Assembly: GCF_003334405.1 (NCBI RefSeq)
Contig: NZ_QOWM01000005.1
Origin: Escherichia coli
GTDB taxonomy: Bacteria > Pseudomonadota > Gammaproteobacteria > Enterobacterales > Enterobacteriaceae
Strand: one strand, 5' to 3'
Length of the DNA: 64,000 bases
Shown here piece after piece: positions 13,185 to 14,650 of this stretch. The notes under the pieces are model-generated. The model saw only the letters and a list, made by a program, of their open reading frames with translations, made no database searches and had not been told where the DNA came from. A program made the translations under genes and the position numbers. Numbering within the stretch: position 1 is the first letter of the stretch; every line of letters begins with the position of its first letter.

Positions 13185-13216
13185 CTGATTAAACAGGGAA
13201 GTTAAACATTAAAATT

Positions 13217-13316
13217 GCCTGATTCGCTACGCTTATCAGGCCTACATCGTGCATTGAAATTGAATGGATTTGCAATGAACTGTAGGCCGGATAAGGCGTT
13301 TACGCTGCATCCGGCA
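13217..13316. repeat. BIME: two REP palindromes in opposite orientation (gcctgattcgctacgcttatcaggcctac ... gtaggccggataaggcgtttacgctgcatccggc)
   Basis: REP consensus palindromes read directly, downstream of epmB. Confidence 0.75.
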
Positions 13317-13578
13317 AGAGCAACAAACGCAAGTACAGCAACCTGTCATTAAACTGGGAAGTTTAATCTTTGCCCGTTGCATAACCTTTAATTATTCATA
13401 TGCATTGCTGTTGTTACTTTTTATATAGCTAACACCAATAATTAACCTTTCTTTTCTGTTTATATAGAGTGAGTACGGCTATTTATGTTATTTTAACAAC
13501 TATTACTACCAAGCCCATTTATCTGGCTTATAAATTAAAATTAATTATTTAATTGAGAAATGGTTAGGGAGAACCTAC

Positions 13579-14448
13579 ATGGCCATAAGCATCAAGGGTG
13601 TTAATACCGGTGTTATTCGCAAGAGTAATAATTTCATTGCACTGGCGCTGAAAATTAAAGAACCTCGCAATAAAGAATCGTTGTTCTTTATGTCTGTCAT
13701 GGAACTGCGCGACCTGCTGATTGCGCTGGAAAGTCGTCTGCATCAAAAGCATAAACTGGATGCTGCTGCACACCTTCAGTATGAGCAAGCTCGCGATAAA
13801 GTCATTAAGAAAATGGCAGAAAACATCCCAGAAATTCTGGTTGATGAGCTTAAAAATGCCGATATTAATCGTCGGGTTAACACGCTGGAACTTACCGATA
13901 ATCAAGGCGAAAATCTTACCTTCGTATTAACGCTACATGACGGTAGCAAATGTGAGTTAGTCGTCAATGAGTTGCAGATTGAAATGCTGGCGCGAGCAAT
14001 CATTCATGCAATTAATAATGCGGAAATGCGTGAACTGGCATTACGTATTACCTCACTGTTAGATTTCCTGCCGTTATACGACGTTGACTGCCAGGACAAT
14101 GGCAATCTGGAATATGACACCTATTCCCAACCGGAATGGAAACATAACTTGTTCGACCATTATCTGGCGGTGCTTTACCGCTTTAAAGATGAAAGTGGCA
14201 AAGAACAATTTAGCGGCGCAGTGGTGAAAACGCGTGAAGCAACGCCGGGTAAAGAAATAGAAGCGATCACTCGCCGAATGCTTGATTTCAGCCCACGACT
14301 GAAAAAACTCGCGGGTGTGCCATGTCAGGTCTATGTTCGCACCGTAGCGGCGAATAACGCCCAACCGCTAACCCAGGATCAATGCTTACGCGCGCTGCAT
14401 CACTTACGTGTTCAATCCACCAGCAAAACTGCACCACAGGCGAAATAA
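13579..14448 (+). CDS. yjeJ: Uncharacterised protein YjeJ (289 aa)
   Basis: ORF track; AT-rich gene with very AT-rich upstream region; no recognisable catalytic motif. Confidence 0.8.
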   Translation: MAISIKGVNTGVIRKSNNFIALALKIKEPRNKESLFFMSVMELRDLLIALESRLHQKHKLDAAAHLQYEQARDKVIKKMAENIPEILVDELKNADINRRVNTLELTDNQGENLTFVLTLHDGSKCELVVNELQIEMLARAIIHAINNAEMRELALRITSLLDFLPLYDVDCQDNGNLEYDTYSQPEWKHNLFDHYLAVLYRFKDESGKEQFSGAVVKTREATPGKEIEAITRRMLDFSPRLKKLAGVPCQVYVRTVAANNAQPLTQDQCLRALHHLRVQSTSKTAPQAK

Positions 14449-14518
14449 TCTCATCTTTGCTAATGCGAGGCTGGAGCCATCCAGCCTGAAATGACTGATA
14501 ACGTGATCGTTGGTCATG

Positions 14519-14617
14519 CCGGATGCGGCGTAAACGCCTTATCCGGCCTACAAATTCTCAAGCATTCAATCAGTTGCAATGCCTTATGTAGGCCTGATAA
14601 GCGAAGCGCATCAGGCA
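14519..14617. repeat. BIME: two REP palindromes (gccggatgcggcgtaaacgccttatccggcctac ... gtaggcctgataagcgaagcgcatcaggc)
   Basis: REP palindromes read directly between yjeJ and yjeI. Confidence 0.75.
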
Positions 14618-14650
14618 ATTATACGTTTGTCACCCAGCCTCTGGATCACA

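Follow-up and report, generated by a model that had tools for sequence, protein, structure and literature searches.

The gene yjeJ and the two repeat elements that flank it were analysed in a 64,000-nt stretch of the Escherichia coli chromosome (contig NZ_QOWM01000005.1), referred to here as the window. As a whole, the locus was probably best explained by a fixed, old gene that was flanked later by bacterial interspersed mosaic elements (BIMEs) and that is an orphan of a microcin-cassette family. The coding sequence (13579–14448, plus strand, 289 residues) matched the Pfam family PF15922 as a solo member of that family, and the gene order around it was efp (−), epmB (+), yjeJ (+), yjeI (−), groL (−), and groS (−). 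The queried stretch around the gene was 100% identical to K-12 derivatives, e.g. the Keio strain record NZ_CP087136.1. As first described, the locus was ordinary, consisting of a known gene of unknown function and two common repeats. The coordinates of that preliminary description were all correct, including its ranges for the repetitive extragenic palindromic (REP) sequences (13217–13316 and 14519–14617); it had suggested that yjeJ was a small horizontally acquired insert that was bracketed by REP sequences and probably silenced by H-NS.

yjeJ is an ordinary component of the E. coli chromosome and is fixed there. All 5426 complete E. coli genomes contained its coding sequence, and coverage reached at least 80% in 5397 of them. 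The ~29 genomes with lower coverage pointed to rare natural knock-outs, and in strain D53-1 (NZ_CM161506.1) the gene was split by an IS1B insertion. When 80 Enterobacteriaceae loci were collected via EpmB and their neighbours were mapped, a YjeJ homologue was present in 46 loci, 44 of which had it directly after epmB and before yjeI. The yjeJ-bearing loci included Escherichia, most Citrobacter, Kluyvera, Pseudocitrobacter, Salmonella, Trabulsiella, Yokenella, Phytobacter, Kosakonia, and Atlantibacter. In 28 loci the site was empty and epmB adjoined yjeI, as in Raoultella, Lelliottia, many Enterobacter, Buttiauxella, Cedecea, Franconibacter, and two Citrobacter, and the other six loci were truncated or carried larger islands. 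Presence at this site was therefore variable across the family, but no absence was seen in E. coli.

At the level of the family, what lies at the epmB/yjeI junction varies, and the site is an ancient insertion hot spot, as supported by additional genes in Kosakonia, Phytobacter, and Citrobacter. In Kosakonia and Phytobacter (loci L060, L065, and L067; 12221–13939), a methyl-accepting chemotaxis protein gene was located between yjeJ and yjeI. In Citrobacter youngae (L017), an open reading frame (ORF) of 572 residues (6330–8048) was located between epmB and yjeJ, and another of 596 residues (9918–11708) between yjeI and groL.

Between genera, YjeJ diverged far faster than its neighbours. When compared with Salmonella diarizonae, YjeJ showed 57% identity, whereas EpmB, YjeI, and GroEL showed 88, 89, and 99%, respectively. 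Within Escherichia, the ratio of nonsynonymous to synonymous substitution rates (dN/dS) was 0.04–0.115 for yjeJ, similar to the 0.037–0.077 of epmB, and yjeJ is under purifying selection within this genus. The gene may be decaying in Salmonella. The start-codon position of yjeJ was ATA in Salmonella enterica subsp. diarizonae (L042), arizonae (L044) gave a partial protein match only, and many truncated Salmonella-style fragments of 148–263 residues, named 'inner membrane protein', were present in the AlphaFold database.

The BIMEs beside yjeJ are old insertions or deletions that segregate independently within the genus, and they did not bring yjeJ in. When the locus was aligned with BIME-less strains, the upstream element lay within a polymorphic segment of 160 nt (13196–13355) and the downstream element within one of 153 nt (14488–14640). 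The upstream segment was bounded by two copies of the direct repeat ATTAAAC(A/T)GGGAAGTT on the plus strand, at 13188–13206, starting 4 nt past the epmB stop codon, and at 13348–13366. BIME-less alleles retained a single copy of this ~19-nt repeat. The downstream segment was inserted at the 3' foot of a hairpin (14467–14487), and the sequence CCAGCCT was repeated at 14634–14640.

The upstream BIME was present in 3253 of the 5426 complete E. coli genomes (missing in ~40%) and the downstream BIME in at least 2995 (missing in up to 45%). E. coli FAH lacked both elements, O157 strain 272 lacked the upstream one, and VTB97379v lacked the downstream one, and all three strains had yjeJ. E. albertii lacked the upstream BIME, both BIMEs were found in E. 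whittamii and cryptic-clade Escherichia (L004, L006, and L008), and genera other than Escherichia had yjeJ without these BIMEs. Since strains with neither, either, or both BIMEs all had yjeJ, the BIMEs are not acquisition scars. The REP bracketing that had been taken as a sign of an acquired insert was instead produced by two separate insertions, and the direct repeats bounded each BIME rather than yjeJ. A composite transposon formed from the inverted BIMEs was ruled out by the presence of yjeJ in all strains with none, one, or two BIMEs and by the short direct repeats belonging to each BIME.

The YjeJ homologues of related bacteria were tied to peptide export. In 10 of the 12 non-solo YjeJ lineages examined (Leclercia L043 and L045, L090, L092, L094, L095, L096, L100, L101/L102, and L103), the gene was located directly 3' of, and on the same strand as, the gene of an exporter composed of Peptidase_C39 and an ATP-binding cassette (ABC) exporter, here called a peptidase-containing ABC transporter (PCAT). 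The exceptions among the 12 were a plasmid-borne copy (L088) and contigs of 1 kb (L097–L099). The spacer between the PCAT and YjeJ genes was 3–25 nt long, with a Shine-Dalgarno sequence within most of them. The gene of an HlyD/CvaA-type adaptor preceded the exporter wherever the contig extended far enough, and both the HlyD adaptor and the Peptidase_C39 plus ABC exporter were identified by NCBIfam and Pfam. On the 5' side of the adaptor, one to three ORFs of 86–122 residues contained double-glycine leaders (e.g. MKQLTVFEMEAISGG, MKELSVIEMDYVSGA, and MKQLSVMEMDAVSGG) and glycine-rich cores; one such precursor was MKELTVFEMDTISGG. The order of the operon was double-glycine microcin precursor or precursors, HlyD-type adaptor, exporter, and YjeJ. 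When L045, L090/L105, L095, L100, L101, L103, and L104 were checked for a leader of ~15 residues with the pattern M...(S/A)G(G/A), an adaptor, and a PCAT, their sequences pointed to class II microcin clusters in the sense of PMC9746304. No recognisable precursor was found in L045. In L101, three successive microcin-like ORFs (1789–2049, 2473–2808, and 3156–3362; 86, 111, and 68 residues) had near-identical leaders and N-terminal cores, which suggests that precursor genes were duplicated and truncated there.

Most of the cassettes occupied the same slot, directly before yjeI–groLS, in Klebsiella pneumoniae, Kluyvera intermedia, Leclercia, and several uncultured relatives. L103 had a different neighbourhood (OprD and SurE) and the same gene order, so the linkage was not only positional. 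The annotation of the K. pneumoniae locus ran usher, fimbrial protein, two hypotheticals, HlyD family protein, peptidase-domain ABC transporter, yjeJ, DUF4156, and groL. In Kluyvera intermedia, the order was efp, epmB, a first YjeJ gene, a ToxR-like regulator, a fimbrial operon, a microcin gene, adaptor, PCAT, a second YjeJ gene, yjeI, and groLS. The two Kluyvera copies shared 28% identity, and the solo one, which adjoined epmB, was the orthologue of the E. coli gene. On Serratia plasmids, solo yjeJ was located among SprT-like, ParA, H-NS, Hha, and topoisomerase genes. Upstream of several cassettes, a divergent gene (L045, 11117–11683; L100, 749–1264; L104, 3088–3654; all minus strand) encoded a ToxR/CadC-like regulator, which had a winged-helix domain and a C-terminal membrane anchor and may control the microcin operon.

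No matching exporter or cassette was found in complete E. coli genomes, and no microcin precursor, C39-peptidase ABC exporter, or HlyD adaptor was present between epmB and yjeI in the window. Searches of 13185–13600 by blastn (word size 7) and tblastx detected no decayed exporter or cassette DNA, and only the translation-initiation region was shared with Kluyvera. In a midpoint-rooted neighbour-joining tree without support values, all solo copies, including that of E. coli, formed one clade, and the cassette copies formed its sister and basal branches.

Within the cassettes, mean identity was 30% for YjeJ, 39% for the microcin core, 76% for the PCAT, and 63% for the adaptor, a membrane fusion protein. 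Between the microcin genes and the adaptor of L090, L095, L100, and L103, no other immunity candidate was found. When compared with the class II microcin clusters of the MccV type, which consist of precursor, immunity, CvaA, CvaB, and TolC, the YjeJ cassettes shared the leaders, adaptor, exporter, and canonical order. However, they contained no visible small membrane immunity gene, and instead a conserved gene for a predicted soluble protein of ~285 residues followed the exporter. The E. coli window differed further, with the YjeJ homologue alone and none of the other genes.

The PF15922 match of YjeJ had an E-value of 7e-175 and aligned residues 1–283 with positions 1–283 of the 283-position profile. 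The claim that the protein had no recognisable motif was accordingly accurate outside its own family, where profile searches against NCBIfam, PADLOC, and PDB were empty and PHROGs gave only E-values of at least 0.06, and inaccurate in so far as this self-defined Pfam family matched. The family was very small: when 1.84 billion proteins were clustered at 50%, only 97 representatives belonged to it, and it has so far been found almost only in Enterobacterales. The YjeJ proteins examined were 282–294 residues long, with maximum 19-residue hydropathy scores of 0.8–1.7 and no clear transmembrane segment; the E. coli protein had a maximum Kyte-Doolittle score of 1.23 and no transmembrane segment. 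Residues Trp187, Lys217, and others were conserved in both solo and cassette YjeJ.

Structure prediction, which had been suggested in the preliminary description, gave a confident model. When AlphaFold was run on an alignment of 26 diverse members, the predicted local distance difference test (pLDDT) score was 92.7 and the predicted template modelling score was 0.88, compared with a pLDDT of 37 for the single sequence. The model consisted of repeated units of a β-sheet plus a helix, and the fold was predicted to be soluble and PUR/Whirly-like. Among the matches listed by Foldseek against AFDB50, only YjeJ-family entries were found. In the PUR/Whirly-like superfamily, ββββα repeat units pair into a domain that binds nucleic acids. 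YjeJ differed from the proteins with such a fold (Pur-alpha, MRP1/2, and PC4) and from DUF3090 in lacking sequence similarity (~10% identity) and a detectable internal sequence repeat, and profile–profile comparison of four YjeJ segments revealed no internal repeats (probabilities of at most 2%). The conserved N-terminus MxxxIKGxNTG was considered as a double-glycine leader and rejected; it did not fit the leader consensus and formed β strands in the confident model.

The composition of yjeJ is AT-richer than that of its neighbours, yet the gene is no compositional outlier. The GC content and the GC content at third codon positions (GC3) were both 0.452 in yjeJ, 0.527 and 0.577 in epmB, and 0.554 and 0.585 in yjeI, so the visible AT-richness noted earlier was borne out. 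Among the 55 annotated genes of the window, however, yjeJ ranked only sixth lowest in GC (z −1.08) and seventh lowest in GC3 (z −1.40). Lower GC was found in ghoST, yjdJ, adiY, and cadC. The toxin–antitoxin pair ghoT and ghoS (34732–35229), with the lowest GC of the window (0.35), was far more deviant than yjeJ. A rising GC gradient ran along yjeJ, with 0.42 at its 5' end and 0.52 at its 3' end. In all 45 loci compared across genera, the yjeJ orthologue had a lower GC than epmB, so the low GC is old or intrinsic to the gene and does not signal a recent acquisition. No integrase, tRNA, or insertion sequence (IS) lay at the borders of yjeJ.

The very AT-rich region before yjeJ was likewise found as described. 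It spanned 13325–13578 (plus strand, 254 nt, 30.3% GC) and contained the promoter and 5' untranslated region of the gene; other promoter-bearing spacers of the window were similarly low in GC (0.31–0.36). A constitutive σ70 promoter has been reported in the epmB–yjeJ spacer by genomic SELEX (systematic evolution of ligands by exponential enrichment) with RpoD holoenzyme (PMC3946193), and its hexamers were located here as TTAACC-17-TAGAGT (13443–13471, plus strand). A simple consensus scan of the spacer for promoters and terminators gave nothing useful and did not call the SELEX promoter. In the table of PMC3946193, the epmB–yjeJ spacer carried no H-NS flag, whereas the nearby cadBA and adiA spacers were flagged, and no high-affinity H-NS motif with two or fewer mismatches was found in a motif scan of the locus. 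YjeJ was among the proteins quantified in a proteome from LB (PMC9508795), and yjeJ was listed among Nac-regulated genes in one study. Silencing by H-NS, as proposed for the locus, was thus without support in the SELEX table, the constitutive promoter, or the protein data. When compared with H-NS-silenced xenogeneic islands, yjeJ was alike in its GC below the surroundings and its very AT-rich upstream region, but unlike them it was not strain-variable, had no adjoining mobility genes or tRNA, carried no H-NS flag in the SELEX table, and was expressed.

The translation-initiation motif ATGGTTAGGGAGAACC (13560–13575, plus strand), which contained the Shine-Dalgarno sequence GGAG, was kept across genera whose YjeJ proteins shared only 45–75% identity. 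The final ~55 nt of the yjeJ leader (window 13515–13578) were identical in E. coli and E. albertii, although the coding dS was 0.72. The motif ATGGTTAGGGAGAACC also held an out-of-frame ATG, which would begin an upstream ORF of 14 codons overlapping the yjeJ start codon. A small leader hairpin, AAGCC...GGCTT (~13511–13529), showed a compensatory change in E. whittamii (AAGCT...AGCTT). In addition, a passage on minor-sigma holoenzyme SELEX from the heat-shock (RpoH) promoter section of PMC5493296 placed a site of type D inside yjeJ, at K-12 ~4371850, between yjeI and yjeK.

Both flanking elements are ordinary BIME-1 (RIB/RIP-type) repeats, and the paired REP palindromes reported on both sides of yjeJ were confirmed as one z plus y set on each. 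The upstream element began 33 nt past the epmB stop codon and was composed of a z REP of 29 nt in the short z form (13217–13245, plus strand), an L linker (13246–13281), and a y REP of 34 nt (13282–13315, minus strand). The downstream element lay where yjeJ and yjeI converge with their 3' ends and was composed of a y REP of 34 nt (14518–14551, plus strand), an L linker (14552–14587), and a z REP of 29 nt (14588–14616, minus strand). The two BIMEs were mutually inverted copies with 85 of 99 positions identical, and the y REP faced yjeJ in both. Both linkers were 36 nt long and alignable with each other, and each locus had one REP pair. The REP tail motif occurred 12 times in the window, compared with 0.01 expected by chance. 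The 29-nt z REP was taken to be z1 rather than z2 from consensus lengths.

BIME-1 has been described as a z1 and a y REP in single copy with a long L linker, often containing a site for integration host factor (IHF) (PMC3333891). The elements at yjeJ shared with this type and with RIB/RIP the inverse z plus y pair, the long 36-nt linker, the single copy, the location at 3' ends of transcription units, a putative IHF-like site in the downstream linker, and the strain polymorphism. The putative IHF site ATTCAATCAGTTG in the downstream linker (14564–14576) had one mismatch to WATCAANNNNTTR. No IHF consensus site with one or fewer mismatches was found in the upstream linker, which has lost the consensus; nothing essential differed otherwise. 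The upstream insertion differed from the type in its unusually long, imperfect direct repeat of ~19 nt, compared with 7 nt downstream, and such direct repeats are not obviously expected from the Y1-transposase model of REP mobility. Rfam naRNA4 over the y REPs was rejected at 40 bits against a gathering score of 59.5 and reflected REP similarity only. The terminator-like hairpin at the foot of which the downstream segment was inserted, GAGGCTGGA-GCCA-TCCAGCCT, lay between the convergent yjeJ and yjeI; it was read from the sequence and missed by the terminator scan.

In E. coli CE12-1 (L087; NZ_CM188249.1), an IS621 (IS110-family) transposase gene (2113–2607) was located in the downstream BIME, at about window position 14591, and the match to K-12 ended at query position 1407. 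IS621 reportedly targets REP sequences, which is consistent with this location. In a laboratory study of amoxicillin resistance, five independent ampC amplicons started in the yjeJ/epmB intergenic region and one in yjeI/yjeJ (PMC12625342). The BIMEs beside yjeJ are obvious candidate recombination joints for these amplicons, although PMC12625342 made no mention of REP or BIME. Elsewhere in the window, the yjdM–yjdN spacer (61430–61743) held a tandem BIME array with a period of 100 bp and alternating z and y REP tails at 61499, 61530, 61599, 61630, 61699, and 61730, in contrast to the single pairs at yjeJ. Genes beyond this array were offset by 200 bp relative to NZ_CP087136.1, so the two K-12 sequences differed there by two repeat units. 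A length difference of 1 bp at ~42134–42254 (fumB–yjdF) offset distal genes by +1 relative to the same record.

Two alternatives concerned the history of the locus. That yjeJ is a small acquired islet, with its boundaries marked by REP pairs and its expression silenced by H-NS, was highly improbable. The GC below that of the neighbours, the upstream region of 30% GC, the junction that was empty in 28 of 80 related loci, and the two inverted BIME copies on either side would fit such an islet. However, none of the 5426 E. coli genomes lacked yjeJ, many genera carried it at this site, its low GC was common to the orthologues in all 45 loci, its dN/dS of 0.04–0.115 indicated constraint, and the BIMEs were independent, polymorphic, and missing from other yjeJ-bearing genera. 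The reported σ70 promoter, the missing SELEX flag, the detected protein, and the lack of a high-affinity H-NS motif at two or fewer mismatches also argued against silencing. A recent and REP-bounded islet was largely refuted by these data. What remained of the proposed acquisition is an origin by insertion, which is plausible from the tiny family, the variable junction, and the copies in microcin cassettes and on Serratia plasmids. The opposite view, that yjeJ is an ancestral Enterobacteriaceae gene which was lost many times and whose microcin link is a coincidence of the hot spot, agreed with the location and strand of the gene, which many genera share, and with a solo clade that roughly followed genus relationships. 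It was nevertheless improbable, because the order adaptor–PCAT–YjeJ recurred outside the hot spot in L103 (and PCAT–YjeJ in L092), the 3–25 nt spacers with Shine-Dalgarno sequences indicated co-transcription, and the family was missing from the basal genera sampled at the junction (Cedecea, Buttiauxella, and Franconibacter).

Two further alternatives concerned the function of the protein. YjeJ could be an export or maturation accessory of the PCAT, e.g. a cytoplasmic chaperone for the long, glycine-rich, aggregation-prone precursors, with the E. coli copy as a functionless leftover. The tight coupling of the YjeJ and exporter genes, the correlation of YjeJ divergence with PCAT divergence (ρ 0.84), and the predicted cytoplasmic location, shared with the C39 domain and the precursors, were consistent with this role. 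A leftover should decay, but yjeJ was intact in 5397 of 5426 genomes by the coverage threshold, and the solo gene was under purifying selection, had a conserved translation-initiation region, and was expressed. Moreover, no E. coli genome had a matching exporter, stand-alone copies occurred on Serratia plasmids, and conservation of only 30% was not expected for the partner of an exporter conserved at 76%, which together made this account unlikely. The predicted PUR/Whirly-like fold suggests a protein or regulator that binds single-stranded DNA or RNA, which in E. coli would serve housekeeping or stress functions and in microcin operons would regulate post-transcriptionally; this account was considered doubtful.

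In the favoured explanation, E. coli yjeJ would be an orphan paralogue that was left at, or seeded from, the microcin-cassette hot spot, and the orphaning would have preceded the divergence of Escherichia, Citrobacter, Kluyvera, and Salmonella. The activity of YjeJ would have to work without the exporter, as the gene was kept, expressed, and constrained where exporter and microcin are absent and occurred alone on Serratia plasmids. Its most likely function, held only tentatively, would be an immunity-like role. YjeJ would act as a cytoplasmic factor of self-protection against glycine-rich microcins and would be retained in E. coli as an orphan immunity gene. This role was favoured because cassette YjeJ was as variable as the toxin, the exporter was conserved, and no other immunity candidate was seen in the four cassettes named above. 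Pairs of variable toxin and immunity proteins have been described for microcins (PMC9746304).

Several observations weigh against this explanation. Validated class II microcin immunity proteins are small (51–216 residues), are embedded in the inner membrane, and have genes that adjoin that of the microcin, while the microcins themselves exert their effect from the periplasmic side (PMC9746304; PMC12219008). YjeJ, with ~285 residues, a predicted soluble fold, and a gene at the far end of the operon, differed from them in size, position, and membrane location, and short unannotated immunity ORFs in the cassettes are possible. YjeJ divergence tracked the PCAT (ρ 0.84) and not the microcin (ρ −0.23, 15 pairs), which weakened the idea of a strictly cognate immunity. 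yjeJ belongs to the core genome of an entire genus, unlike orphan immunity genes in general, which tend to be accessory. In a laboratory evolution study, a deletion of yjeJ was used as a neutral linked marker (PMC10679819), which speaks against an obvious phenotype in pure culture. As for the origin as a remnant, no trace of an exporter was found upstream of E. coli yjeJ, the tree was midpoint-rooted and had no support values, and the Kluyvera solo copy coexists with a complete cassette, so that more than one order of events would fit. The PUR/Whirly-like fold matches were at the level of domains, with moderate Z scores and coverage of ~110–135 of 289 residues.

When compared with the orphan immunity genes of bacteriocin and polymorphic-toxin loci, yjeJ was alike in being a paralogue of a toxin-cassette gene without toxin or exporter and in adjoining the slot that holds full cassettes in relatives. 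It was also alike in its fast divergence between lineages with constraint within them, and in the coexistence of solo and cassette copies in Kluyvera. It was unlike them in being core in the genus and predicted cytoplasmic, where the known microcin immunity proteins are in the membrane.

No publication linking YjeJ or PF15922 to microcins was found, and a fifth component like YjeJ was absent from the published description of class II microcins (PMC9746304; PMC12219008). The limits on the size of immunity candidates were 250 residues in cinful (PMC9746304) and 216 residues in PMC12219008, so YjeJ would be excluded from the candidates. A YjeJ-type component would thus be removed by the cinful cut-off and passed over where small membrane proteins beside the microcin gene are chosen manually. 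More speculatively, class II microcin systems of a widespread subgroup may contain YjeJ as a fifth component that has gone unrecognised, a soluble, PUR-like cytoplasmic protein that protects the producer from its own glycine-rich microcins or neutralises them in another way, and the orphan copies of E. coli, Citrobacter, and relatives may give standing resistance to the gut microcins of Klebsiella, Kluyvera, and Leclercia.

The locus is a clean natural case in which REP/BIME 'brackets' are later colonists of intergenic DNA. The context of the relatives ties an uncharacterised K-12 'y-gene' to operons that export antibacterial peptides, including one in Klebsiella pneumoniae, and this context is the first testable clue to the function of yjeJ. 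Should YjeJ prove to be protective, competition between genera in the gut would involve a gene of the E. coli core genome.

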